Assembly (NCBI GenBank): GCA_964503955.1 | Contig: CAZDCG010000001.1 | Span: 382,864-446,863, forward strand | DNA: 64,000 bases | Reading direction: 5' to 3' | Source: an uncultured Gammaproteobacteria bacterium | Lineage (GTDB): Bacteria; Patescibacteriota; Patescibacteriia; VMEV01; CAYQCH01 | Shown here: piece after piece, positions 3,998 to 63,776 of the stretch | Numbering within the stretch: the first letter of the stretch is position 1 | Layout: each line of letters begins with the position of its first letter | Translations under genes and position numbers: made by a program | Notes under the pieces: generated by a model | Told to the model about the DNA's origin: nothing | The model's input: the letters and a program-made list of their open reading frames with translations, nothing else | The model's database searches: none

Positions 3998-4040
3998 CCG
4001 CAGCCCCTTGTGCCGTCCGGCGCGAGGGGCTGTAAAATAA
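3998..4040 (+). terminator. Putative rho-independent terminator
   Basis: GC hairpin cagcccct-N16-aggggctg followed by a weak U-run. Confidence 0.4.
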
Positions 4041-4170
4041 CCGCTGAAACTTGCCGTTCGTTCATGAGCCTGCTAACGTGTTCGCAACACATCTGTTTAT
4101 TATTGTTTGATACGTTCGGCCAATTTTGCATGTTCGGCAACGTTTGGCTCGTTTGGTAATGTTTAATACT

Positions 4171-10056: not shown

Positions 10057-10755
10057 ATGGTCCCCCATCCCCATGGGTCCTGGGAGCATGTCAACCCGCG
10101 TGCTCGCAAGATCTTTCGCCGCGGCCAGGAACGGCGCCGGCGCAAGGATCAGAGCGCGGCGCACCGCCTTCGCAAGGGCAAGCATGATGTCCGCTACTCC
10201 TTCGAGATCAGCTCCGAAGACGGACCTCTCTCCTTTCTCTTCGAGGAGATCAGCCGGATCACGCTCCACGCGCTGACCTCGCGCAAGATGATCGACAAGG
10301 TTCGCCGCCGCCAGGCGCGCGATATCCTGCCGCAGACCCTGAAGCTCAGGATCATTCGCCGGCGCACGGAGTCTGGCGCGTACGTGATCATCCCCGGACA
10401 GCAGTACGACGACTTCTGGGTTCCGATCCGTGAGTCGGAGTGCCGGGTGCTTGATGCCTGGCAGTGGGTGATGCGCTATGAGCCCTGGCAGCAGAAGATG
10501 CTGCTGGAGGTGAAGAGCATCTACTCCAACATCAGCCGGGCTCAGCTCGTCTCTCTGATCACTCGCGGCGAAACCCGCTACTACTCGCCGCGCGTGCGGG
10601 TCGTCATCCTCATCGAGGTCGTCGGACAGAGCTTCAATGCTCATCCGCTCAATCCCGTTCCTCTGCCGGACAACGATCCGCAGAACAGCCTGGACGACGG
10701 CCGCCTCGAGATGGACGCCGCACTGGAGAAGATCGGCGCCGAAATCGCGGCCTAA
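10057..10755 (+). CDS. Hypothetical protein encoded in a locally GC-rich segment with a basic N-terminus
   Basis: ORF 10024-10755 with an ATG at 10057. GC and GC3 are far above the surroundings. A GC hairpin lies at 10758-10795. Confidence 0.4.
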   Translation: MVPHPHGSWEHVNPRARKIFRRGQERRRRKDQSAAHRLRKGKHDVRYSFEISSEDGPLSFLFEEISRITLHALTSRKMIDKVRRRQARDILPQTLKLRIIRRRTESGAYVIIPGQQYDDFWVPIRESECRVLDAWQWVMRYEPWQQKMLLEVKSIYSNISRAQLVSLITRGETRYYSPRVRVVILIEVVGQSFNAHPLNPVPLPDNDPQNSLDDGRLEMDAALEKIGAEIAA

Positions 10756-29609: not shown

Positions 29610-30041
29610 ATGAGATCAGAAAAGTTTTCATTTCAAATCTTCTCCGCGGCTCTGGCGGTTTTTTCGATCACACTTCTCTTTTCTTTTGATTTCGCTTCTG
29701 CTCGCCCAACCCAATCGCCTCCAAATGGCAGTCCGTCATGGCCGCCGGGGCCTCAAGGACCTCAAGGACCGCAGGGACCGCAAGGATCTCAAGGACCACA
29801 GGGAGCTCAAGGGCCTCAGGGTCCTCAAGGACCACAGGGACCCGCAGGAACAACGACATGCGACTGGAATGGGAGCTTTTGGATCAGCCATGGATGGGAC
29901 GGCAACTGTGCTTGGTATGTCGGAGTTCGCATCAATTGCAGTGGAGGACGAGTAACATCCTTCACAAATTATAACTATACTGGAGCCGGTACTTGCGGAT
30001 ATATGTGCTACGCGGGGGGCGCCTGCCACCAGCCTTCTTAA
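29610..30041 (+). CDS. Small secreted collagen-like (Gly-Pro-Gln)n protein with a Cys-rich C-terminal domain (paralog 1)
   Basis: Signal peptide ending ASA|RP, then PPNGSPSWP, about 11 G-X-Y triplets (mostly GPQ), and a CDWNG...HGWDGNC Cys-rich domain. Confidence 0.6.
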   Translation: MRSEKFSFQIFSAALAVFSITLLFSFDFASARPTQSPPNGSPSWPPGPQGPQGPQGPQGSQGPQGAQGPQGPQGPQGPAGTTTCDWNGSFWISHGWDGNCAWYVGVRINCSGGRVTSFTNYNYTGAGTCGYMCYAGGACHQPS

Positions 30042-30047
30042 GGCGTC

Positions 30048-30461
30048 GTGTTTACATTTCGTATGACAATAGCTTTCTTGCGAAAACAACTTCAAATTCT
30101 GATGGCTTGTCTTGTTGTTTCAGGCGTGATTATGCTCTTCAACGCTGTGAAAGCTGCGCCCACTCAAAACCCGCCTGCAGGCAATCTCTCCATTCCTGCA
30201 GGCCCAGCCGGACCCCAGGGACCGCAAGGACCACAGGGATCTCAGGGACCGCAAGGACCACAAGGACCTCAGGGATCGCAAGGTCCACAAGGAGCTCCTG
30301 GAAACGCCAGCTGCAGCTGGAACGGCTATATGTATCTGAATCATGGATGGGATGTTGGCACAGGATGCCAGGGATACCGCGGCATTCTCGTTCGATGCAG
30401 CGGCGGACAAACCTATGACTTTTCACGCATCACCAATTGCGGGCCTTTCGCAGGATTCTAA
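30048..30461 (+). CDS. Small secreted collagen-like protein (paralog 2)
   Basis: Signal peptide ending VKA|AP, a (GPQ/GSQ)n run of about 12 triplets, and CSWNG...HGWDVGTGC. Confidence 0.6.
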   Translation: MFTFRMTIAFLRKQLQILMACLVVSGVIMLFNAVKAAPTQNPPAGNLSIPAGPAGPQGPQGPQGSQGPQGPQGPQGSQGPQGAPGNASCSWNGYMYLNHGWDVGTGCQGYRGILVRCSGGQTYDFSRITNCGPFAGF

Positions 30462-30463
30462 TT

Positions 30464-30877
30464 ATGAAATCACTTAACCAGTTCAATCTACTACTCAGTA
30501 TTGCCGCCACCGTCACAATCGCGGGCTTATTTGCGATGAGTTCAGTGAAAGCGGAACCAAGTATTGCCCCTCCGGGAGGCAATCCGAGTTTTCCTGTTGG
30601 TCCGCAGGGTCCACAGGGACCCCAAGGACCTCAGGGACCCCAAGGACCTCAGGGAAGCCAGGGGGCGTCAGGATCCCAGGGCCCGGCGGGACTGTACGGC
30701 ATGGGGTTCTGCTACTGGAATGGCCCTGAGTTCGTCAGCTACGGATGGGATGGATGGTGCGCGGGTGATATCGGTGTCTTCTTCCATTGCGACGGCTACC
30801 GTCTCTACCATCTTTCTCAACGATACACCGGGTGCGGAAGCTCAGGAACATATCCAAGTACGCCTTACATCAACTAA
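30464..30877 (+). CDS. Small secreted collagen-like protein (paralog 3)
   Basis: The ATG lies 2 nt after the previous stop. Signal peptide ending VKA|EP, a (GPQ)n run and CYWNG...YGWDGWC. Confidence 0.6.
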   Translation: MKSLNQFNLLLSIAATVTIAGLFAMSSVKAEPSIAPPGGNPSFPVGPQGPQGPQGPQGPQGPQGSQGASGSQGPAGLYGMGFCYWNGPEFVSYGWDGWCAGDIGVFFHCDGYRLYHLSQRYTGCGSSGTYPSTPYIN

Positions 30878-30896
30878 GCCGCAATCAGTAGAACGA

Positions 30897-30926
30897 AAAA
30901 TCCAAAAAGCCGCCTGAATAGGCGGC
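30897..30926. terminator. Bidirectional rho-independent terminator
   Basis: aaaaagccgcc-tgaata-ggcggctttttt. Confidence 0.6.
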
Positions 30927-30948
30927 TTTTTTCTTTCTTATGAAGGCC

Positions 30949-32931
30949 TTAGCGAGGGACAATGCGCCTGAACTCCGGAAGGAGAACTCCCACGGACGCG
31001 TCCGTGCTGGTTGAGCAAGAGTACCCATCGGAATCGGTTACGGACAAAGATATTTGAACATCCTCTTCCGTTACATATTCATGCTCAGGATTCTGGTGCA
31101 CGCTTTCATCACCGCCGGTCAGGGTAGTGCCATCACCAAAATCCCAGTCCCACTCGGCAATGGTCGCACCGCCATACGTGATGGTTTCATCAGTAAACTG
31201 CGTTGGCTGACCCAAGGTTGGCTGAGCAGGGTCAAGGCTGAACGCGCATTGCGGAGCCGGGTGCAACGGCGTTCTAAAACAGTTGCTTTCGCCAACAGGC
31301 CCTTGTTCTCCCCACTCAGACCAAGAGTCGTCTGCCGCGCTCTGCACGCGCACTCTCCAATAGTAGGTCGCATTGTAGACCAGTTCGCCAAGCCCGACCG
31401 TATAGAGAGAATCCGGTGCTTCCACGACTTCGTCAATGAGAGGAGATCCAAATAAAGGATCATCATCAACTTGGACGTGATACGCTTTTTGTGATGATCC
31501 ATCAAGGGCAGAGTATTCACTCCAATCAAGCACCGGCGTGAGCGCGGATGTCGGATACAAGGTATAGGTATCAACACAAGCAAGCGGCTCGATAAGCGTT
31601 GGCGCAAGCGGGCCGGCTTCGATTCTCAGCTGGGTGATAACCGAACCGAAAACGTGGTTGTACTGAATCCACCCGATCGTATCACTCCAGGCCCAGCCGC
31701 TCCATCGATTGTTCGTCTGATTATATTGAACTCCGTATGAGATAGCCCCTGTATCGCGCAGCTTTACCCAGCCATCATCTCCGGCCGCATCGATTCCAAC
31801 AAACTTGGCCCAGCCGGAAACTTCTCCTGTGGCCTGGTTCCAATGCGCGGAATGCTGCGGAGATGTCGGATACGGCCCGGCGGGATCATAATCAAGCCAG
31901 CCGATTTGAGACCAGGCATATCCTGTGATATTTCCATCTTCTTCCACATTCACACCGTATTGGATGTCGTAATTGGTGAAGCGAAAAGCAATCCAGCCAT
32001 AATGATCATTCCATGCCCAGCCTGACAAACTTGGCACCTGCCCTTCGTTAAAAACCACTCCGCCCAAAGCTGGGGCAAAATCGATCCAGCCTGTTACATC
32101 ATTCCAGGCATAACCGGTGAGCGAGCCATCAGGAAGAAGGTCAATGCCAAATCCTCCGCAAGAAGGAGTACAGTCTCCTCGTAGTTCAATGAGATTATTC
32201 GCACCAAGCGAGGTAATTTCAGCCGTCCCCGACAATTCCCCTGTTTGCGGGTCAAAAGCGGCTCCAGAAAAATCGATGTATGCTAAGTAATCATTCCAGG
32301 CATGCCCGCTGACATCTCCGGTTTCCGTATCGACATGCACGCCGAACTCCGGAGTGGATGGATCATCAACGCTATTGTGAAAAATCCAGCCGATATTGTC
32401 TGACCAGGCCCAACGACATGTATTGAAAGGGGAAGCGGAACAGACGCCCTCCTCTGGAGTCGGGGTTAGCTCGCTCATCTGGATCCAGCCGATATTTTCG
32501 TTCCAGGCCCAGCCGGAAACGCTTGGAGTTTGGGCGGAATTTTGCGATACCCCGCCGTAAACCGGGTCAAACTGCACCCAACCGATGATCTGGTTCCAGG
32601 CCATGCCGGCGAAGTTTCCTCCGCTGTCCACGCTCACGCCGTAACCGCCGCAGGTTGGGCTGCAGTCGCCGCTCATATGTAAAAGTCCGTCTTGCCCTTG
32701 ATTCTGCAGCTCAATGATTAGTGCGGTTCCGCTAAGCGCGCCGGTATTCACATCGTAAATGGCATTGTTGAAATCGATCCAGCCTACTCCCTCACTCCAC
32801 GCGTACCCATTAACATCGCCATAGACTTCGTCGATATGCATGCCGTAGTAGACCTGCTGCGCCTCAACAGACATGGTAAACCCAGCCGCAAAGAGCAAAC
32901 TCGCAAAGAAAATAAGAAAAGACTTCCTCAT
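30949..32931 (-). CDS. Large secreted repeat protein: about 10 Trp-rich ~45-aa repeats plus an FN3-like region and a C-terminal PKD domain
   Basis: Signal peptide ending VEA|QQ. The repeat motif G(Y/W)AW(S/N)xxxGWI(D/Q)F recurs about 10 times. YYWRVRVQS...WSEWGE looks FN3-like. WDFGDGT...HEY matches a PKD domain. Confidence 0.65.
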   Translation of the reverse strand: MRKSFLIFFASLLFAAGFTMSVEAQQVYYGMHIDEVYGDVNGYAWSEGVGWIDFNNAIYDVNTGALSGTALIIELQNQGQDGLLHMSGDCSPTCGGYGVSVDSGGNFAGMAWNQIIGWVQFDPVYGGVSQNSAQTPSVSGWAWNENIGWIQMSELTPTPEEGVCSASPFNTCRWAWSDNIGWIFHNSVDDPSTPEFGVHVDTETGDVSGHAWNDYLAYIDFSGAAFDPQTGELSGTAEITSLGANNLIELRGDCTPSCGGFGIDLLPDGSLTGYAWNDVTGWIDFAPALGGVVFNEGQVPSLSGWAWNDHYGWIAFRFTNYDIQYGVNVEEDGNITGYAWSQIGWLDYDPAGPYPTSPQHSAHWNQATGEVSGWAKFVGIDAAGDDGWVKLRDTGAISYGVQYNQTNNRWSGWAWSDTIGWIQYNHVFGSVITQLRIEAGPLAPTLIEPLACVDTYTLYPTSALTPVLDWSEYSALDGSSQKAYHVQVDDDPLFGSPLIDEVVEAPDSLYTVGLGELVYNATYYWRVRVQSAADDSWSEWGEQGPVGESNCFRTPLHPAPQCAFSLDPAQPTLGQPTQFTDETITYGGATIAEWDWDFGDGTTLTGGDESVHQNPEHEYVTEEDVQISLSVTDSDGYSCSTSTDASVGVLLPEFRRIVPR

Positions 32932-33008
32932 ATGCCTACAGTATACCACAAGAAAGAAGACACCTGCGTCAAAAACGTGTTATACTTTGATCGAAATAAT
33001 CTTTTTGT

Positions 33009-33656
33009 ATGCGCAATCACATTTTGCTGCACGGAGTTCTGGGAGTTTTTATCGGCATGTTCGGTGCCGCTCTAGGGATCTCCATTATCAACTACACATT
33101 CGCTGCTCCATCAGAAGCTCCTCCTGGGGGCAATCCAACGTTTCCCTTGCAAGGTCCAACCGGACCGCAGGGTCCACAGGGACCTCAGGGGCCGCAGGGG
33201 CCGCAGGGACCACAAGGACCGCAGGGACCGTCAGGGACAGTTAGCCCATCACAGACAATCAGCTTGCGAACCTCGAGTTCGATCTGGTATTGCACGCAGG
33301 CAAATCTACAAGCTGAATGCGGTGACGCGGATGGGTGCCGAATTCGGATGGTTATGGACCACAAAACCGCTGGAAACGACGACACGCGTATCATTGAAGA
33401 GCACCTGTACATGGAGAACTGGAGTGTGAATTCCGCTAACGGTGTATACGGCTTTACGCGTCAGCTTGGCGGAGGCGATGGCGGATGGATTTCAGGTCCC
33501 GGCTATCATTATGCAGTCGCCGCCCCATGGGATTGGGCCTGGATCCACACCTTTCGACATGCGAATTGTTACGGTTCAAACCAGTCGCTTTCTGCTTACA
33601 ACTTCAATTTCATGACCCATCCGGATGTCGCGACAACCTTCTACGTCTTTGACTAA
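33009..33656 (+). CDS. Secreted collagen-like protein (paralog 4) with a distinct, larger C-terminal domain
   Basis: Signal peptide ending FAA|PS, about 9 GPQ triplets, and a roughly 130-aa C-terminal domain unrelated to paralogs 1-3. Confidence 0.6.
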   Translation: MRNHILLHGVLGVFIGMFGAALGISIINYTFAAPSEAPPGGNPTFPLQGPTGPQGPQGPQGPQGPQGPQGPQGPSGTVSPSQTISLRTSSSIWYCTQANLQAECGDADGCRIRMVMDHKTAGNDDTRIIEEHLYMENWSVNSANGVYGFTRQLGGGDGGWISGPGYHYAVAAPWDWAWIHTFRHANCYGSNQSLSAYNFNFMTHPDVATTFYVFD

Positions 33657-40122: not shown

Positions 40123-40202
40123 AAAGAGAGAAAGGCAATTCAATGTACTGAAAGTAGGCAAATTGTACGGAAAATACGTGAGTTCGTCAAAGATAGGCTT
40201 CC

Positions 40203-40560
40203 AAGAACCCCCTCATCAAGTCCATGACTCTAGACAGTTGATCCCTGTCCCCCTTTTCTAGGGGGAAGAAGTCGCTTCTCCCCTCTTGAAAAGAGGGGCT
40301 GTGAGAGACGTGGAGTAAAAATCAACATGCTTGGGGGAGTTCTGGGCTTGGTAATCCCTAATTTTATCCTCATCCTTATCTCTCATTACTCCCCAACTCC
40401 TCCACCTAATTCCTAAGTCCTAATTCTTTGAGCGGCTTTATGACATTAGCATCTTAAAGAATTAGGGGAAGGAATTAAGAATTAGGGAAATAAAAATACG
40501 CCCATGAATAGGCGCTGCTTTATTCGTAAATTTGTATTCGATTCGCACATTCGTACCCCC
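40203..40560. repeat. Composite cluster of palindromic intergenic repeats (families B, C and D)
   Basis: Contains cccccttttctaggggg / cccctcttgaaaagagggg hairpins, the cctaattcctaa...ttaggaattagg hairpin, and a copy of the groES-groEL spacer element ttcgtaaatttgtattcg. Confidence 0.65.
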
Positions 40561-50577: not shown

Positions 50578-51463
50578 GTTTATACATCAATCTGCGGTCA
50601 TTGGTATGAAACTTGAGCATGATATCGTTGACAACCACTTCCGTTCCTCCCTTTTGTAGCGCCGTTTGGATCGTTTCCGGAAAGCGCTTCTGCTGCCATG
50701 ATTTTGTTTTTTGCTCCATGAGGCGATGAAAGGGCTTGAGCAGCCAATGTCCCAGAGCCTTTATTGCACCATGCCAACGGCTCGCAGGAACAGCCTGTTT
50801 TTCTGGAAGAACATGCGCTCTGCAAAGCCCGCGGTTTTCCTCTTTGAGACGATCAACTAGACAGCAGGGATCATAGAGCGGCGTAAGCGTGCGGATCCAG
50901 TAATCAAGATAAATATCTTCCTTAAGCGCGACGGATCGCAGATCAAGCCTGTCCGCCTGAAGGAAGAAACTCAGGCAGATTGTTCCATACTCATTTCCCG
51001 GCTTTGGCCTCTTTCCAAGCAGGTGCAAAAAGGCCGTAAGAAAAAACCTCGTCTGCCAAAGCCAGCCGGGTTTTGTGAGAATAAAGAAATCGATATCACT
51101 GTCTTCGCCTGCATGTCCGAAAGCGACTGTATTGCAAACCGCGATGGCCTCAACCCCTGGAAACAGAGCAAGCGCCTTGCTCCAGGCTTTCGCTGATTTC
51201 AGCAATGCGCGAGAGCGCTCCTGCGCCTGTTGATAATCTGCGGAAAAGTTCCCCAAGCGCTCGGGAAGACAGAAAAGCGAGCCCGCAGAACAGATTTTTT
51301 GCTCATCAAGCAGAGTTTGAACGGCTTGCTCGAAGATATGTTCATCAGGTTGATGCTTCGCTTCCCATAAGAGATACGCAAATAATTGATCCTTACCAAC
51401 CGGAATACCAAGCACGTCAAAAAAGGCTGTGGTCTTTACAATTTGTCGGCGCATCTCATCCAT
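50537..51463 (-). CDS. Nucleotidyltransferase-domain protein
   Basis: GHAGEDSDIDFFIL matches the Pol-beta-like NTase motif G[SG]x9-13Dx[DE]. It overlaps the upstream gene by 41 nt. Confidence 0.5.
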   Translation of the reverse strand: MDEMRRQIVKTTAFFDVLGIPVGKDQLFAYLLWEAKHQPDEHIFEQAVQTLLDEQKICSAGSLFCLPERLGNFSADYQQAQERSRALLKSAKAWSKALALFPGVEAIAVCNTVAFGHAGEDSDIDFFILTKPGWLWQTRFFLTAFLHLLGKRPKPGNEYGTICLSFFLQADRLDLRSVALKEDIYLDYWIRTLTPLYDPCCLVDRLKEENRGLCRAHVLPEKQAVPASRWHGAIKALGHWLLKPFHRLMEQKTKSWQQKRFPETIQTALQKGGTEVVVNDIMLKFHTNDRRLMYKHAYEERHRQALGE

Positions 51464-51479
51464 ACGCCGGATAGCTTAG

Positions 51480-51930
51480 CATGGATAGCAGCACGCCAGA
51501 ACCCCCTCATCATCCTTGTGATTTTATTGTTTTCTCCATCTCCCTTTTCTAGGGGGAAGGACTAGGCACGCAACCATCTTCCCCCCTCTAGAAAAGAGGG
51601 GTCGCGATAAAGATACTAAATGCAAAAACCTTCTTGGGGGAGTTCTTATTAACCCAGAACCCCCTCTTCATCTTTGTGATTTTATAGGTTTTCTCCCCTC
51701 CCCCTTTTCTAGGGGGAAGATTATCCTAATACACGCAACCATCTTCCCCCCCTCTAGAAAAGAGGGGGCGCGATAAAGATACTAAATGCAAAAACCTTCT
51801 TGGGGGAGTTCTTATTAACCCAGAACCCCCTCGCCAGGTTTACGATTTGCCAGGCTTTATCCAGTCCCCCATTTCTAGGGGGAAGAAGAAACATTTATCG
51901 GTTGAGTAGAACATGCTATAATACTGTCGC
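51480..51930. repeat. Tandem array of about 130-bp composite palindromic repeat units, left part
   Basis: About 2.5 copies of the unit acgcaaccatcttcc-cccctctagaaaagagggg-...-cttgggggagttcttattaacccagaaccccctc-...-ccccttttctagggggaag. Confidence 0.8.
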
Positions 51931-51963
51931 TTGCCCACAGCTAATCATTGTGGGCATTTTTTT

Positions 51964-52407
51964 ATGGACCAAGAAATTCGTTTATATGACCTCTACTATC
52001 GTCGCATGAACAATGATGGCAAGCTTGTTTGGTTGGATGAAGCATTTATGCATCGCCTTAAAGAGCTGCGCAAGAATCAGACAGCAGCAGAAAATATCCT
52101 TTGGCAGAAATTAAGAAGAAAGCAGCTTGGCTCTAAATTTTTGCGCCAACACCCTATTAATGGGTACGTAGTCGATTTCTACTCGCGTACTTATAAGCTC
52201 GCAATTGAACTTGACGGTGCTGTTCACCACGATATTGCAGTAAAATTCCGAGACGCGGCAAGGCAAAAAGAGCTTGAGTTCTATGGAGTCCGTTTCCTAC
52301 GATTCACGAACGAAGAAGTTATAAATCAGCTCGATGGTGTCATTGAAAAAATTAAATCGACGATACGCAACCATCTTCTCCCCTCTAGAAAAGAGGGGCA
52401 AAGATAA
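51964..52407 (+). CDS. DUF559-family (Vsr-like PD-(D/E)xK) endonuclease-domain protein embedded in the repeat array
   Basis: YVVDFYSRTYKLAIELDGAVHH...GVRFLRFTNEEV is the DUF559 core. Its 3' end reads into the next repeat unit. Confidence 0.7.
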   Translation: MDQEIRLYDLYYRRMNNDGKLVWLDEAFMHRLKELRKNQTAAENILWQKLRRKQLGSKFLRQHPINGYVVDFYSRTYKLAIELDGAVHHDIAVKFRDAARQKELEFYGVRFLRFTNEEVINQLDGVIEKIKSTIRNHLLPSRKEGQR

Positions 52408-52570
52408 ATGCATCGCGAAAAACGAAACCTTCTTGGGGGAGTTCTTGTTAACCCAGAACCCCCTCGTTACGTTTACGTTTTGCCAAGCTTTATCCAGTCC
52501 CCCTTTTCTAGGGGGAAGGACTATCCTAATGCACGCAACCATCTTCTCCCTGCACATCGTTCAATCCTCA
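52363..52570. repeat. Tandem array of about 130-bp repeat units, right part
   Basis: About 1.3 further copies of the same unit as 51480-51930. Confidence 0.8.
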
Positions 52571-52709
52571 CCTCTCCGTCGTTATTTGGGAGAACACGAT
52601 AGCAGTAAAGAATGTTCCGAAAAATCCGACGAGATTCCCGTTTGCCAGCCTTTGCGCCTTGCACAGCAAGAGACCCAACAAAGAAGGGCATGATCACGGT
52701 TGTAACTCT

Positions 52710-55502
52710 CTACAATATCTCCTTCAAATACTTCCCCGTAAACGAACGTTTTACCTTCGCGATATCCGGCGGGGTTCCTTCAGCAACCAATTCGCCTCCT
52801 TTGTCTCCGCCGTCAGGGCCCATATCAAGCACCCAGTCGACGTTCTTAATCACGTCAAGATTATGTTCGATAATCAGAACGGTATTGCCTTTGTCCGCGA
52901 GCTTATTGAGAACAAGCAGGAGACGTTTGATATCTTCAAAATGCAAACCGGTCGTCGGCTCGTCGAGAATATACAAAGTTTTTCCGGTTGAGCGGCGGGA
53001 AAGTTCGGTCGCCAGTTTAATGCGTTGCGCTTCTCCGCCGGACAAGGTTGTCGCGCTCTGCCCAAGTTTGAGATAGCCAAGTCCCACGTCTTTAAGGGTG
53101 GAAAGCTTCTCAAAGATCGCGCTGGTATCTTTAAAGAAGAGGCGCGCTTCTTCAATCGTCATCTCAAGCACGTCAGCAATCGTCTTTCCTTTATAATAGA
53201 TCTCCAATGCTTCGCGATTGTAACGGCGGCCCTGGCAGACATCGCATGTCACGTAAACGTCTGAAAGCATTTGCATTTCAATTTTCACCTGGCCGTCTCC
53301 CTGGCAGGCTTCGCAGCGGCCGCCCTTCACATTAAAAGAGAAATGTCCCGCCTTATACCCTTTCAGCTTGGCTTCGGCCGTTTCCGTGAACAGATCGCGG
53401 ATATAGGTAAAGACACCCGTATAGGTTGCCGGATTGGAACGCGGCGTGCGTCCAATCGGACTCTGATCAATGCTGATCACTTTGTCGATATGCTCAATGC
53501 CGGTGATTTTGTCATGGGCAGCCGGCAAATCTTTGGCGCGATAAAAATGATGCGACAATGCTTTGCCAAGGATATCCGTCATTAAGGTTGATTTTCCTGA
53601 GCCGGACACACCGGTGATCGCCACGAGCTTGCCAAGCGGAATGCTGACCGTAACATTCTTGAGGTTGAACGCGGTGGCATTATGAATGGTGATCGATTTG
53701 CCGCTGCCTTTGCGGTATTCTTTTGGCCGATCGATAGTTTCTTTGCCGGAAAGATATTTGCCTGTAACCGATTTCGGATTCTTCATCAATTCCTGCGCGG
53801 TCCCCTGCGCGACGACTTGCCCGCCATGCTCGCCCGCGCCCGGTCCCATATCAATCACGAAATCAGCCGCCACCATGGTGGCTGGATCATGTTCTACCAC
53901 AATCACGGTATTGCCGATATCCCGCAGCCGGGTGATGGTTTTGATCAGCTTTTCATTGTCACGCGAATGCAAACCGATGGACGGTTCATCAAGCACGTAG
54001 ATCACGCCGGTCAGCTTGGTGCCGATTTGCGTGGCCAGACGAATTCGCTGCAATTCCCCGCCGGACAAGGTCACCGCTGATCGATCTAACGTAAGATATT
54101 GCAGCCCGACATCTTCAAGATAGCCAAGCCGGGCGGTCACCTCTTCAATCAGCTGCTGCATGATCGTCCACTCCTGCTTTTCAAGCGGATGCATGCTTGT
54201 TTTTCCTGGCTTGAGCTGTTTAAAAAATTCTTTTAAATCAGAAATAGTCATCGTCACCAAATCCTCAATCGATTTATCCGCGACCGTAATGGCTAGAATC
54301 ACCGGCTGCAGTCGTTTGCCCTGGCAGGTCGGGCAAATCATCAGCCTCATGAATTTTTCAATTTCCTTGCGGACATAATCCGAATCCGTATCCGCGTGCT
54401 TTTTTTCAAGATCAGGAATAATCCCCTCAAAGCCGGCATGCCCGTAGAGCAAGGCTTTTTTCTGTTTGGTATCAAGCTTGTTCATTGGCGTATCCATGGT
54501 CACCCCAAGCGGATGCATGGCTTCTTCCACGCGGCGCATGATACTTGTGCTATTGGCGTAGACGCGCGTCCATGGACGGATGGCGCCTTCTGAAATGGTG
54601 AGTTTGTCATTTGGAATCACCAATTCCTCGTCAACAACAAGGCGCGTTCCAAGTCCGCTGCAGGCCGGGCAGGCTCCCTGCGGCGAATTGAAGGAGAAAA
54701 TGCGCGGCTCGATTTCCGGCAAAGAAATATCTCCATCGGAAAAAACATAGTATTGGCTGAATGTGGTTTCCTCATTTGAACCGGCAAGCGACCCTGAAAG
54801 GAATCCATTACCCAGATCAAGCGCCTGCTTGATGAATTCAAATGCCGCGTCTTTTGACGTATCTTTTTGAATGAGCTGGGGAAGCATGACTTCGATCGTA
54901 TACGCCTTCTTTTTATCAAGCTCAATCCCTTCGATATCGGCGATATCGTAAAAGACGCCGTTGATGCGGACCTGCTGGTATTCCGAGCGGCGGATTTCAT
55001 CAAGCGTGCGTTTGTGGTTGCCGCGCGCGTCTTTTGTCAAAGGCACGATAATGCGCACCGGGCCTCTCTGTGCCAGCTCAAGAATCTTTTTCGTGATTTC
55101 TTCGGGATGCTGCTTTTTGACTTCCTGGCCGGTGACGGGATCATGCGGCTTGCCGATGCGCGCGAACATCAAGCGCAAATAGTCGTAGACTTCGGTCATG
55201 GTGCCAACGGTTGAACGAGGATTGCTGCTGCCGCTGCGTTGGTCAATCACAATGGTTGGGGAAAGTCCTTCGATGCTGTCTACATCCGGTTTGTCGAGCA
55301 CTCCCAAAAATTGCCGCGCGTAGGAGGAAAGACTCTCCACATAGCGGCGCTGTCCCTCCGCGTAAATGGTGTCAAATGCCAGCGACGATTTTCCCGAACC
55401 GGAAACCCCGGTCAGCACCACGAGCTTGTCGCGGGGAATGGAAACGGAAATGTTTTTTAAATTATGCACGCGCGCGCCTTTGATATCGATGGATGTAGGC
55501 AT
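52710..55502 (-). CDS. uvrA: Excinuclease ABC subunit A
   Basis: 930 aa. Two ABC ATPase modules ([18 protein letters not shown]) and Zn-finger Cys clusters. Confidence 0.95.
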
Positions 55503-56645
55503 GTTAGCAAAAAATTAAGACCGATCCGTCAAATAGAGTAACAGGCAGTGTAGCGGATTTTTTCGATTTGATCAATACGAAAAAATCCGCAGACGGATCA
55601 GACATCACAGACTTCAAAGACGCGCAGATTGGTGAGAACACCCCCCCTAATTCCCAATTCCTAATTCTTTAAGCATCTTAATTGCTTGAAAGTAATTTCA
55701 AAACAAAAACGCTCCCGATCGCCGTAAAGCAATCAAGAGCATCTTTTCTTTCGTCGTGCGTGTGGAATGCCCTTTGTCGTCGGGCGTGGGGCTCCGTCCC
55801 CGCCCGACACCTTGTCGGACGCGAGGCTGCGTCTCCGTCCGACCTTTTCCACCTCAAATCCGCTACCTCTATACCCCGCTTGATTCAACATCAACCATTC
55901 TTGACCCTTTACCCGCCTCTCAAATCCGGTACCTCTATACCTCCCTCACCTAAAACCAAGGTAAGACAGGGGTATGAGCAAGATAACGGATGAGAAAAAA
56001 CCAGGCTTGAGCAAAGCTCGTGTACCTCATATCGTTTTTCGATACAAAGCGCCTGAATGAGAGGCTTGCAAAGTCATTTGCCACCTTCCCTTGCAGGCCT
56101 GCGGCAAACGGCTTCTCACGAGGCAGGGTAACGGATCCCGGTGTATCAGTTGCTCACCGGCTGCCCCGGCCATCCCGAAAGATGACACTTCAACCTAGAT
56201 TGAAATGGGGGTATTGTCAAGGCTGTTGCTGATCCCAGAACCCCCTCGCTACGTTTTCTTTTCCTCCATGCTTTATTCAGTTCCCCCTCCTGCCTGCCGG
56301 TTTACCCGCCGGAGGAGGGCAGGCAGGTTTCTAGGGGGAAGAAGAGCAGACTCCCCCCCTCTTAGGAAGAGGGGCTAGGAAAAACTTTCTAAAAGAAGAT
56401 ATCCGCTTGGGGGAGATCCTACCCTAATTCCTAATTCCCAATTCCTAATTCTTTGAGCATCTTCACCCGCGATATAAGTTTCCCGCCTGCTAAGCTTTAC
56501 AGCCTGCATAGCAAGAAGGGGCTTGATGCGCGGGGATGATGATCCGCAAGGAGGGGTGATAGCAGCAACACTGTACAATCAAAAAACCCACAGCCGATCG
56601 TCTGTGAGTCTTGAGAGCCTGAAAAGTCTGTGAGTCTGTGCACTC

Positions 56646-63335: not shown

Positions 63336-63776
63336 AAAAACATGCCCCGCATCAAGGGGCTGTTTTTTTATCCCTAATTCCTAATTCCCAATTCCTGATT
63401 CCTCCTTGCCCCCCACTAGCCATGCTTGAGAGGGGGTTCTTGATCAAGAACCCCTCCAACCAGATACCTGATTTTAGAAAGTTTATCACCCCTGAAAAGA
63501 GGTGAAGTCACTCTTCTTCCCCCTTGAAACCTGCCTGCCCTCCTCCGGCGGGTAAACCGGCAGGCAGGAGGGAACTGCATAAAATACCAAGCGAAAGGAA
63601 GCCTGGAGAGGGGATTCTTTCCAAAAGACCCGCGAAGCGGTACCGCGATCTATGTCTATTTTCTAGGTCTAGATCTGTATCTATACCAGCAAAAGCGATA
63701 AAAACGGCGTTAGATATAGACGTAGAAGTTAGAAAAATGAGAAAGAGCGACCATTCCCGCCGAATTTCTTTAAGCA

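Follow-up and report, generated by a model that had tools for sequence, protein, structure and literature searches.

Rickettsia palindromic elements (RPE) and bacterial MITEs are short, dispersed, gene-less palindromes that can be tolerated in-frame in protein-coding genes. Another class of bacterial repeats, BoxC/PIT/TMECO, has been known since the 1990s; these repeats are conserved, widespread and triplex-forming in vitro, and their origin has been left open in the literature. They follow the consensus CCCTCNCCC N3-6 GGGNGAGGG N3 GGGNGAGGG and lie dispersed in intergenic DNA, often as tandem inverted pairs, and are linked to local indels (Holder et al. 2015, PMC4666352). Their sites are reported to be indel hot spots that may recruit repair, according to the 2015 survey mobility-related activity was never found near them, and the literature on BoxC reports no transposase (PMC4666352).

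Here we analysed a 64,000-nt stretch of bacterial DNA (hereafter the window), for which GroEL homologs point to Patescibacteria, in the candidate phyla radiation, as the source. In it, an array of palindromic units carries a gene for a DUF559 protein of the YcjD type and has as neighbours the genes for UvrA and for a 308-aa protein of unknown function. The locus is like REP/RAYT systems in that a single-copy nuclease-type gene lies between inverted copies of a dispersed short GC-rich hairpin repeat, which is the criterion for this likeness, and also in that the repeat occurs many times without a gene, as singlets, in inverted doublets and in clusters, and in the mostly chromosomal location of the system. 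It differs from them in that the enzyme is a PD-(D/E)xK protein of the Vsr fold rather than an HUH/Y1 (IS200/IS605-like) transposase, and in that the repeats and arms lack the GTAG/CGTC tag. Moreover, REPINs are described as vertically inherited, whereas the exact hairpin found here is common to several phyla.

With I-Bth0305I and the other EDxHD homing endonucleases, the window protein shares a homologous catalytic domain in both sequence and fold, fulfilling the criterion for that comparison. Like free-standing homing endonuclease genes, the gene is compact, carries a promoter of its own and is preceded by a hairpin 5' of its start codon, and DUF559 modules are inserted inside or between conserved host genes. 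Unlike I-Bth0305I, however, the window gene is intergenic without any intron or intein context (no intron was found with Rfam), and its protein lacks an I-Bth0305I-type N-terminal DNA-binding domain; unlike homing endonuclease genes in general, DUF559 genes have flanking inverted hairpin repeats, lie on the chromosomes of diverse bacteria and hardly occur on phages. Vsr and DUF559 have been grouped in one clade (PMC3424549). The Vsr repair endonuclease is of the same fold superfamily as the window protein, but the latter belongs to the Pfam family DUF559 and no cytosine methyltransferase gene is adjacent to it. JGI names like 'very-short-patch-repair endonuclease' were rejected as annotation transfer.

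The array and its gene-bearing unit

A preliminary description of this DNA had reported about four near-identical units of about 130 bp in tandem, with solo or partial copies at 40203-40350, 56225-56400 and 63400-63580. Tandem Repeats Finder reported the array (51496-51886, period 166, 2.4 copies, 86% matches), and a repeat search recovered units at every one of these sites; the repeats themselves are real. Four palindromic units indeed lie head-to-tail at 51496-52550, two of them gene-less, one split by a cassette and one truncated, and three solo unit copies occur elsewhere in the window (Table 1). The reported length and near-identity had to be given up: the period is 158-166 bp (about 160), and the copies are 70-89% identical to one another. 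The end motif AGAACCCCC occurs seven times against 0.41 expected, on every occasion inside a unit, and the hairpin pattern eight times against 0.10 expected.

Each element consists of two inverted half-sites, in which the C-run end motif (AGAACCCCC) is followed by a hairpin. The hairpin has a pyrimidine 5' arm and a purine 3' arm (CCCCTCT-AGAAA-AGAGGGG), and the distance between C-run and hairpin is 34-35 nt in the units of the window. As single-stranded DNA, U2 folds into one long imperfect hairpin (-24.5 kcal/mol, z = -2.6). U4 has neither hairpin C nor a right end, hairpin B of U5 holds a nested 39-nt palindrome (CCTGCCTGCCGG...CCGGAGGAGGGCAGGCAGG), and U6 is joined head-to-head with an additional end fragment (GAGGGGGTTCTTGATCAAGAACCCCTC). 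The array had been judged not to be a CRISPR, and we concur: the whole unit of 158-166 bp is repeated, including the segments between the hairpins, no cas-like ORFs lie nearby, and neither a tRNA nor a CRISPR-like feature was detected at the array. PADLOC returned weak matches only, leaving a reading as a defence system unsupported.

Table 1. Coordinates of the repeat units and of the features of the cassette in the window
Feature	Position	Strand	Details
U0, solo gene-less unit, short linker	40201..40347	+	hairpin B 40249-40265; hairpin C 40280-40298; right end 40330-40343
U1, gene-less palindromic unit	51496..51653	+	158 bp; left end CCAGAACCCCCTC; hairpin B 51540-51556; linker; hairpin C 51583-51601
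U1 right end CTTGGGGGAGTTCT	51633-51646	+	
U2, gene-less unit	51654..51819	+	166 bp; hairpin B 51700-51716; hairpin C 51749-51767; right end 51799-51812
U3, gene-bearing unit	51820..52452	+	633 bp; alignment of U1, U2 and U4 to U3; hairpin B 51866-51882; hairpin C 52380-52398; right end 52432-52445
Cassette, U3 only	51887..52364	+	promoter, leader hairpin, conserved part of DUF559 ORF
Extended -10 promoter-like TGCTATAAT	51914..51922	+	direct sequence reading
Leader hairpin	51932..51963	+	9-bp stem, then T7 up to ATG
DUF559 (YcjD-type, Vsr-fold) nuclease ORF	51964..52407	+	147 aa from ATG
U4, truncated unit	52453..52550	+	left end; hairpin B 52499-52515; linker to CATCTTCTCCC
U5, solo unit	56233..56415	+	altered right end
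U6, solo unit, reverse orientation	~63415..63620	-	nested palindrome as in U5

The ends and hairpins of U3 are the same as those of the gene-less units, with a 478-bp cassette in place of the linker of 10-14 bp. The promoter-like TGCTATAAT was not called by a sigma-70 two-hexamer scan because it has no -35 element; at the equivalent relative position, the homolog locus L003 has TGATATAAT. The leader hairpin of the cassette looks like a terminator or a translation block. Its arrangement of hairpin and T-run is also found in L003, an analogous 17-bp hairpin precedes E. coli ycjD, and Vsr-like free-standing homing endonuclease genes have comparable 5' hairpins. An alternative start of the ORF, TTG at 51931, would give a protein of 158 aa. 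The gene interrupts the array, as had been described, but its 3' end enters hairpin C of its own unit U3 and not the next unit as was first thought. Its last 14 codons are made of sequence that is present in gene-less units too (ACGCAACCATCTTC...), and the tail of the protein (IRNHLLPSRKEGQR) comes from unit sequence plus hairpin C.

The window protein matched Pfam DUF559 (PF04480) with E = 1.4e-30, residues 31-134 aligning with profile positions 6-108 of 109; its Pfam matches were DUF559 and MTES_1575 only, and the NCBIfam YcjD model matched at 7e-17, below its equivalog cutoff. The conserved catalytic-type pattern of DUF559 is D...E-x-D-G-x-x-H...D, and D71, E82, D84, H88 and D97, which are (near-)invariant in 44 sequences, are all kept in the window protein. 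A profile of 44 homologs matched PDB 3HRL at 3.5e-32 and I-Bth0305I (3R3P) at 5e-6. In the AlphaFold model (pLDDT 90.9), the protein has a restriction-endonuclease-like fold with a target-normalised TM-score of 0.90 to 3HRL. In a Foldseek search with this model, I-Bth0305I (3R3P) matched at E = 1.6e-4, its target-normalised TM-score being 0.78, and 1vsr was a weak match at rank 7 (E = 0.06).

Flanking repeats across the DUF559 family

When 80 metagenomic homolog loci were searched for the exact window hairpin with up to three mismatches, zero matches were found; the association is therefore with an architecture and not with a single sequence. We therefore used a generic inverted-repeat test, with same-geometry placements as controls. 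Flanking inverted repeats above the 95th percentile of the controls were found in 41 of 64 metagenomic homologs, and a score of at least 16 was reached at 29 of the 64 versus 2 of 64 neighbouring genes, while random placements never reached this score (maximum 15). In about a third of the 64 homologs, no flanking inverted repeat was detectable. Two further loci that were checked later again had the association.

The arms of the homologs share a common architecture of a C-run, a short spacer and a pyrimidine-loop-purine hairpin. A perfect hairpin of at least 5 bp is present in 26 of 37 arms, compared with 9.5% when the arms are shuffled. Pyrimidines make up 96% of the 5' stem arms, and 18 of 32 arms have a C-run outside their hairpin. 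The arms extend past the hairpin and have no T-runs, the elements at metagenomic homolog loci are 430-690 bp long, and arm similarity tracks protein similarity (Spearman 0.27, permutation p = 0.002). The gene lies between the hairpins in the window, in L003 and in most metagenomic loci, and between the C/G-runs in L052 and L077, a variation in position that is not predicted by a simple fixed-ends transposon model.

The closest homolog (P0002, 55% identity) is from a different genome and is flanked by equivalent inverted hairpins: its gene is enclosed by a hairpin pair of 27 nt with 96% complementarity, and there is an outer inverted pair as well. Its layout also includes a promoter of the form TGnTATAAT, and its leader hairpin likewise ends in a T-run. 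DUF559 genes that are moderately related (65-69% identity) are located in quite different operons, each with its own arms. It had been stated beforehand that homologs in unrelated contexts without repeats would refute the proposal of a nuclease within its cognate repeats; the outcome was the opposite, in that the contexts are unrelated and the repeats accompany the gene.

In a collection of reference genomes that excludes the window's own genome, the exact 19-nt hairpin was found in 103 stretches from many phyla, against about 9 expected under uniform composition. Six of these stretches also contain a DUF559 gene, and in all six the gene and the hairpin are no more than 320 bp apart. Ignavibacteria and Caedibacter have one gene-bearing copy each and several gene-less ones, and gene-less copies far outnumber gene-bearing copies. 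In Cysteiniphilum, hairpin half-sites lie within larger elements with their own outer inverted ends (TTACGCAC...GTGCGTAA). Together, our data demonstrate that the module of a gene between inverted hairpin motifs is a property of the DUF559 protein family across phyla. No paper on an association between DUF559 and repeats was found in the literature searched, the coverage of which was incomplete, and an earlier description is not excluded.

On the other strand, the BoxC/PIT consensus reads as a C-run, 3 nt, a pyrimidine arm, a loop and a purine arm, like the arms of the homologs. A relaxed form of the BoxC/PIT pattern is matched at many homolog loci, among them L052 (with TTA as its second loop), L110, L163 and L187. 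The window stems (CCCCTCT/AGAGGGG) are unlike the strict consensus, and the third block in the window (AGAACCCCC or GGGGGAG) is 34-35 nt away from the hairpin, so that the strict BoxC/PIT triplex consensus is not met; the strict E. coli TMECO pattern had no match in the fetched homolog loci. In E. coli, the 3' end of ycjD enters such a hairpin, the inverted partner of which lies at a distance of 154 nt, and the repeat adjoining the gene is a BoxC/PIT/TMECO member. The partner repeat beside ycjD is dispersed, with a median of 18 places per E. coli genome. These data establish that the flanking motif of the DUF559 family is a repeat of the BoxC/PIT intrastrand-triplex type. Compared with BoxC/PIT/TMECO repeats as described, the hairpin modules here have a specific nuclease family associated with them.

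Proposed mechanism and competing explanations

On balance, we lean towards reading the locus as a REP/RAYT-like or homing-like module in which a Vsr-fold nuclease acts on the hairpin repeats flanking its gene, although both the activity and the mobility are inferred. A homing or selfish element, or a repeat-associated nuclease within its cognate repeats, had already been suggested for the array; the association has been substantiated, while cutting and repeat spread remain inference. To our knowledge, no biochemical activity has been reported for the YcjD-type subfamily of DUF559. In the mechanism that we propose, the DUF559 protein would recognise the hairpin or triplex structure of the flanking repeats and nick or cut there, and repair would copy from a homologous repeat, by gene conversion or homing, through which the cassette may spread into gene-less copies. 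The same repair process might duplicate or delete units, giving rise to the tandem array and the dispersed solo copies. Such a lifestyle would be like that of REP/RAYT, with one resident nuclease gene and many gene-less repeats. The lineage-specific insertion of the array block and the in-frame elements in host genes, both described below, count in favour of this reading. Counting against it are the missing target-site duplications, the single genomic context of exact gene copies, the rarity of the gene on phages and plasmids, the homologs without a flanking inverted repeat, and the E. coli genomes that keep the repeats but not ycjD.

A wider hypothesis is offered only tentatively, as one that we hold to be somewhat short of probable. 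YcjD-type DUF559 and its C-run-plus-hairpin repeats would form an unrecognised, phylum-spanning minimal selfish element of about 0.45-0.7 kb. Its Vsr-fold nuclease would be directed not by sequence but by non-B DNA, in the form of a hairpin or an intrastrand triplex, and would propagate by break-induced copying. The gene-less BoxC/PIT repeats found in E. coli and in thousands of further genomes would then be its non-autonomous progeny, and the element would survive in-frame in essential genes such as LeuRS.

Alternatively, though in our view this is unlikely, DUF559 may be a domesticated nuclease that benefits the host by resolving the hairpin or triplex non-B DNA of the repeats, for instance where forks stall; the flanking copies would serve autoregulation or merely mark the birthplace of the gene, and the repeats would have spread by slippage or recombination and not through the protein. 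Such a role is consistent with a gene that is single-copy and stable at one locus, chromosomal and not phage- or plasmid-borne (the YcjD type is rare on phages and plasmids), and preceded by a leader hairpin suggestive of tight expression control, as well as with the reported BoxC/TMECO indel hot spots and their possible recruitment of repair (PMC4666352). However, the genes of 65-69% identity lie in very different operons with their own arms, and ycjD is present in only 62% of E. coli genomes and dispensable in the other 38%, whereas the repeats are present in all. Genomes without ycjD, O157 Sakai among them, were rejected as a clean empty site, the fabI-sapF spacer being wholly replaced there by an efflux-gene island.

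The array block, too, is missing from syntenic relatives, which argues against domestication. These relatives have a spacer of 50-85 bp or an unrelated gene at the array site; for example, only 50 bp lie between uvrA and the 308-aa gene in L193, and an unrelated 211-aa gene lies between them in L190. Over 12-17 kb, the syntenic relatives contain no units, no DUF559 gene and no H1-like hairpins, and the block is therefore a lineage-specific insertion. A Logan contig (L001) with exactly one 166-bp unit fewer was not counted as evidence, as collapse by the assembler is possible because U1 and U2 have a 60-nt identical stretch. A further argument against domestication is that elements occur in-frame within essential genes. 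Host genes that are read in-frame through an element include those of LeuRS (a 187-residue insert in the allele from L187), a type ISP enzyme and ArgB (L133), as expected of a selfish insert filtered by selection. The in-frame copies, such as those in ArgB and the Ignavibacteria T9SS tails, are like RPE and MITEs, but a coding version with a nuclease gene exists here and no target-site duplication was seen.

It is more doubtful still that the units are non-autonomous MITEs moved by an unrelated transposase encoded elsewhere, with DUF559 as their cargo or as a free-standing endonuclease gene that prefers palindromic intergenic sites. Gene-less copies are indeed far commoner than gene-bearing ones, and the Cysteiniphilum half-sites lie inside larger elements with inverted ends of their own; insertion sequences that target REP hairpins are also known (PMC12288879). 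Nevertheless, a transposase was absent from about 90 loci inspected, as it is from the BoxC literature, and no known transposase family was detected by Pfam at the window. Inverted ends are present on the elements. Neither the ends of the window's units nor 25 elements at other places showed a consistent target-site duplication. DUF559 is repeatedly the sole cargo, across phyla and with very different arm sequences, and arm and protein sequences vary together. For two homologs, exact copies were found on 9-10 contigs each, always in one genomic context per homolog across samples, and recent multi-copy spread was rejected on this ground. The single locus and the absence of target-site duplications suggest a single-copy resident of the REP/RAYT type more than an actively jumping insertion sequence.

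Coincidence, meaning an ordinary repair gene among REP-like terminator or insulator hairpins and an array formed by plain tandem duplication, is already disfavoured and seems to us very improbable: GC-rich hairpins are frequent in intergenic DNA and strong flanking inverted repeats also occur at 2 of 64 neighbouring genes, but the enrichment to 29 of 64, the arms that lack T-runs and extend past the hairpin, and the recurrence of the arrangement both at the closest homolog (55% identity) and across other phyla speak against it. We likewise give hardly any credence to an array that encodes small RNAs or a riboregulator with hairpins acting at the RNA level; the units fold well and some hairpins are transcribed within mRNAs or ORFs, yet Rfam gave no relevant match for the window, for the region at a permissive threshold or for ten related loci (none at gathering or E-value threshold), the units occur in both orientations, and the inverted-pair symmetry around the gene is a DNA-level feature. 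The pyrimidine-then-purine polarity of the stems is equal on both strands and thus gives no clue to the transcribed strand.

Significance for the DUF559 family and its repeats

Our findings point to DUF559, a large family without a known function to which E. coli YcjD and the solved structure 3HRL belong, as a previously unlinked partner enzyme of an orphan class of repeats that is widespread. Linking the two assigns a testable function to each and provides a candidate enzyme for BoxC/PIT/TMECO repeats and a candidate substrate for DUF559, with E. coli ycjD and its 23 repeat sites as a tractable model. How proteins come to contain inserted domains is a question to which the in-frame copies in LeuRS and elsewhere are relevant; these copies also account for mis-annotations such as DUF559 proteins labelled 'HisF/cyclase'. 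If the nuclease is structure-specific, the REP/RAYT lifestyle would have a second example with an independent mechanism, and the module might furnish a small enzyme for nicking DNA at hairpins or triplexes.

A hairpin array with an embedded DUF559 gene

Reading of positions 51000-53200, together with Tandem Repeats Finder and a repeat search, established a head-to-tail array of palindromic units, as the preliminary description had claimed; Tandem Repeats Finder reported 51496-51886 with a period of 166, 2.4 copies and 86% matches. Unit phase was set from the left end motif CCAGAACCCCCTC. Hairpins B and C are approximate reverse complements of each other, as are the left and right ends; the unit is thus one long imperfect palindrome, and its fold energy as single-stranded DNA is -24.5 kcal/mol (z = -2.6). 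For the end motif, 7 occurrences were counted in the 64 kb versus 0.41 expected, and for the hairpin pattern 8 versus 0.10, all of them within the array or the solo copies U0, U5 and U6, where three dispersed copies had already been recognized. No tRNAs, Rfam families or CRISPR-like features were found in the window, and the earlier exclusion of CRISPR holds. Logan data from a different run also contain this organism, and in that assembly the array is shorter by exactly one 166-bp unit (L001 9673-10010 against window 51470-51970), which may be real copy-number variation or an assembly artefact, that is, a collapse over a 60-nt identical stretch.

Units, unit elements and cassette features in the window (U0-U6, copies of the palindromic unit)
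Feature	Position	Length	Description
U0	40201-40347		solo copy
U1	51496-51653	158 bp	
U2	51654-51819	166 bp	
U3	51820-52452	633 bp	
U4	52453-52550		truncated
U5	56233-56415		solo copy
U6	about 63415-63620		solo copy, reversed
Full unit, element 1			left end AGAACCCCC, then about 34 nt
Full unit, element 2			hairpin B, CCCCC-TTTTCTA-GGGGG-AAG, then 10-14 nt linker
Full unit, element 3			ACGCAACCATCTTC, between linker and hairpin C
Full unit, element 4			hairpin C, CCCCTCT-AGAAA-AGAGGGG, then about 35 nt
Full unit, element 5			right end CTTGGGGGAGTTCT
DUF559 ORF	51964-52407	147 aa	Pfam DUF559 match 1.4e-30
Extended -10 box	51914-51922		TGCTATAAT, read from sequence; cassette's own signal
Leader hairpin			9-bp stem + T7, ends at ATG; cassette's own signal

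Alignment of the gene-less units to U3 showed that U3 is a unit with 478 bp (51887-52364) in place of the short linker. The ORF takes its last 14 codons and its stop codon from unit sequence and hairpin C, both of which also occur in gene-less units. A profile of 44 homologs matched 3HRL, a solved DUF559 protein, at 3.5e-32 and the I-Bth0305I homing endonuclease, in its catalytic domain, at 5e-6; the same two were the top fold matches of the AlphaFold model of the window protein (pLDDT 90.9), with Vsr lower in the list, and all family-invariant residues are present in this protein. In having its own promoter and 5' hairpin the cassette resembles homing endonuclease genes, and both features have been described in the literature for free-standing Vsr-like endonuclease genes.

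The GroEL encoded in the window shares 72-75% identity with named proteins of Patescibacteria (Komeilibacteria, Uhrbacteria and others), which places the host in the candidate phyla radiation. In relatives the order uvrA, 308-aa gene, Wzy_C, GroES, GroEL is conserved. In one of them (L193) the spacer between uvrA and a 316-aa gene is 50 bp with a plain terminator, and three others (L190-L192) have an unrelated 211-aa gene at the uvrA-side site. Since no unit, hairpin like that of the window or DUF559 gene was found in the 10-17 kb stretches of these four relatives, the 1.25-kb block of the window is a lineage-specific insertion. Its DUF559 gene is antisense to the neighbouring genes.

Other repeats were seen in the window. 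Short arrays of the CCTAATT heptamer (CCTAATTCCTAATTCCCAATTCCTAATTCTTTGAGC; 40405-40423, 55649-55667, 56423-56451 and 63373-63403) directly adjoin the three solo units, make a hairpin with a roughly 35-bp stem at 40400-40480, and may be a second repeat module travelling with the units; a single CCTAAT also lies in the U2 and U4 linkers. In U5 and U6 the loop of hairpin B contains a 39-nt palindrome, CCTGCCTGCCGG...CCGGAGGAGGGCAGGCAGG (56289-56327, 63530-63568), whose CCTGCCTGCC motif also makes up the outer inverted pair round the homolog in L003 (9851-9873 / 10496-10518). The repeat search also found a dispersed repeat of roughly 44 nt with GTCTGTGA-like octamers (5372, 8306, 8860 and 56600, one copy just after U5), and long 9-nt repeat runs at 29715-33254 that encode collagen-like Gly-Pro-Gln triplets in several ORFs (Tandem Repeats Finder periods 9, 18 and 27).

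Inverted hairpins around DUF559 genes in other phyla

According to the preliminary description, a link between nuclease and repeat would have been refuted by homologs that lie in unrelated contexts without the repeat; many homologs elsewhere were found to carry flanking inverted hairpins. The closest, P0002 (55% identical), lies among different neighbours in a low-GC genome, with ACGTTTCCCTCCCTTTTCAAGAGAGGG on one side and a 96% complementary copy on the other at a distance of 508 nt. Besides an outer inverted pair, its locus has a TGATATAAT box and a leader hairpin followed by a T-run. A scan of reference genomes found the exact hairpin CCCCTCTWGAAAAGAGGGG in 103 stretches, where our own arithmetic under uniform composition gives about 9, with multiple copies in Cysteiniphilum, Caedibacter, an Ignavibacteria MAG, a Planctomycetia MAG and others. 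Six of these stretches contain a DUF559 gene, always with the hairpin within 320 bp. The Ignavibacteria locus L052 has CCCCCTCTTGAAAAGAGGGGG-TTA-GGGGGTGTTCT on one side of the gene and the exact complement on the other, the two motifs being the window's own. Arm-like segments are multiplied in tandem beside or near DUF559 genes in L052 (3560-3680; 26-nt units, four copies), the Patescibacteria contig L021 (about 4000-4090; the 19-nt hairpin three times with a 34-nt period) and L010 (200-330); the window array is thus not unique.

Half-sites were also observed in other settings. In Ignavibacteria GWF2_33_9 (L022, L055, L060, L068), the hairpin and GGGGGTGTTCT half-site lie at the same position in several paralogs resembling T9SS C-terminal sorting domains, apparently secretion-tail coding sequence, and as half-sites inside genes they are similar to Rickettsia palindromic elements. 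In Cysteiniphilum and Caedibacter (L006-L078), half-sites made of AACACCCCG, a small hairpin, CA, CCCCTCTTGAAAAGAGGGG and AAT form inverted pairs in elements of about 190 bp; these elements are bounded by outer inverted ends of their own, TTACGCAC...GTGCGTAA, and each genome has many of them.

A metagenome scan with the protein alignment gave 80 loci, none with the window hairpin sequence, and 64 had enough flank for an inverted-repeat test. The flanking inverted repeat exceeded the 95th percentile of controls (260 same-geometry placements, maximum score 15) in 41 of the 64, and scores of at least 16 were reached by 29/64 DUF559 loci versus 2/64 neighbouring genes. Elements are 430-690 bp long and have a common arm architecture: a C-run, 2-5 nt, and a hairpin with 96% pyrimidine in its 5' arm. 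Perfect stems of 5 bp or more were found in 26/37 arms versus 9.5% of shuffled arms; the C-run lies outside the hairpin in 18/32 arms, and a G-run inside in only 2/32. Stem sequences vary while pairing is kept (CCCCC/GGGGG, CCCCTCTCC/GGAGAGGGG, TCTCCCC/GGGGAGA and others). Higher protein identity tends to go with higher arm similarity (Spearman 0.27, permutation p = 0.002), in part from common ancestry of orthologous insertions. Two further loci, fetched afterwards for another purpose, likewise show arms. The gene's position varies: between two hairpins in the window, L003 and most metagenomic loci, and between C/G-runs with the hairpins outside in L052 and L077.

Several elements occupy narrow gaps between the genes of biosynthetic operons (hisA-hisF, argF-argB, leuC-leuD, identified from translated flanks), and the JGI naming of DUF559 proteins as, for example, 'HisF/cyclase' is thereby explained. 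Complete elements, both hairpin arms included, are read through in frame by host ORFs (L187 2014-5574, also L125; L163 2161-3927; L133 585-1901). A leucyl-tRNA synthetase contains DUF559 at residues 348-452, between its catalytic domain and its editing domain; in a type ISP restriction enzyme the C-terminal domain is split; and an ArgB fusion carries an additional solo hairpin in frame. No intein or intron features were found at the elements in these three hosts.

ycjD and the BoxC/PIT/TMECO repeats of E. coli

The only DUF559 gene of E. coli K-12, ycjD, has its 3' end within ACCCTCTCCCTGAAAGAGCGAGGGGG, a BoxC-like hairpin, with the inverted partner CCCCTCGCCCCTCTGGGGAGAGGGTTAGGGTGAGGGG 154 nt downstream towards fabI (L188, NC_000913.3 1351195-1351760). 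This partner is a BoxC/TMECO copy, and part of the ycjD 3' end is duplicated between the hairpin and fabI as well. BoxC was first described beside envM (fabI), at this same locus. The gene is present in 3,378 of 5,426 complete E. coli genomes (62%), and the repeats in all: the 56-nt partner segment is a dispersed repeat found in 5,426/5,426, at a median of 18 places. O157 was considered as an empty ycjD site and rejected; an efflux island replaces the locus there. The segment corresponds to repeats tabulated by Holder et al. 2015 (PMC4666352; Table 1, e.g. row 22). In that paper BoxC, PIT and 'TMECO' are treated as one intrastrand-triplex motif, with consensus CCCTCNCCC N3-6 GGGNGAGGG N3 GGGNGAGGG, reported to be present in 23 copies in MG1655 (five as tandem inverted pairs) and widely distributed over more than 5,000 genomes; the triplex forms in vitro, local variability is raised, and mobility-related activity was never found near the repeats. 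Neither ycjD nor any endonuclease is mentioned there. On the other strand, the consensus is exactly the C-run, spacer, pyrimidine arm, loop and purine arm of the DUF559 arms.

A repeat-bounded gene and its possible spread

A YcjD-type DUF559 gene between inverted BoxC/PIT-like hairpin motifs constitutes a conserved, phylum-spanning module, gene-less repeat copies occur in the same genomes, and the window is a locally amplified, recently inserted example. No published link between DUF559 genes and BoxC/PIT-type repeats was found in the literature; searchable coverage is incomplete, and we therefore do not claim the link as categorically new.

Evidence of mobility is limited: exact copies of two homologs are each in one context only, the gene is nearly absent from phages (2/50,697) and rare on plasmids (34/72,556), and no target-site duplication was apparent at the elements examined. 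Among the alternatives, we rank first a domesticated structure-processing repair nuclease, and second a passenger in MITE-like elements that are moved by another enzyme. Coincidence ranks third, and an RNA function last.

We infer instead that the Vsr-fold protein is the structure- or site-specific nuclease for these repeats. If this nuclease reading is right, break repair by copying would spread the cassette and reshape the arrays, a lifestyle that we liken to that of REP repeats and their resident RAYT transposase gene.
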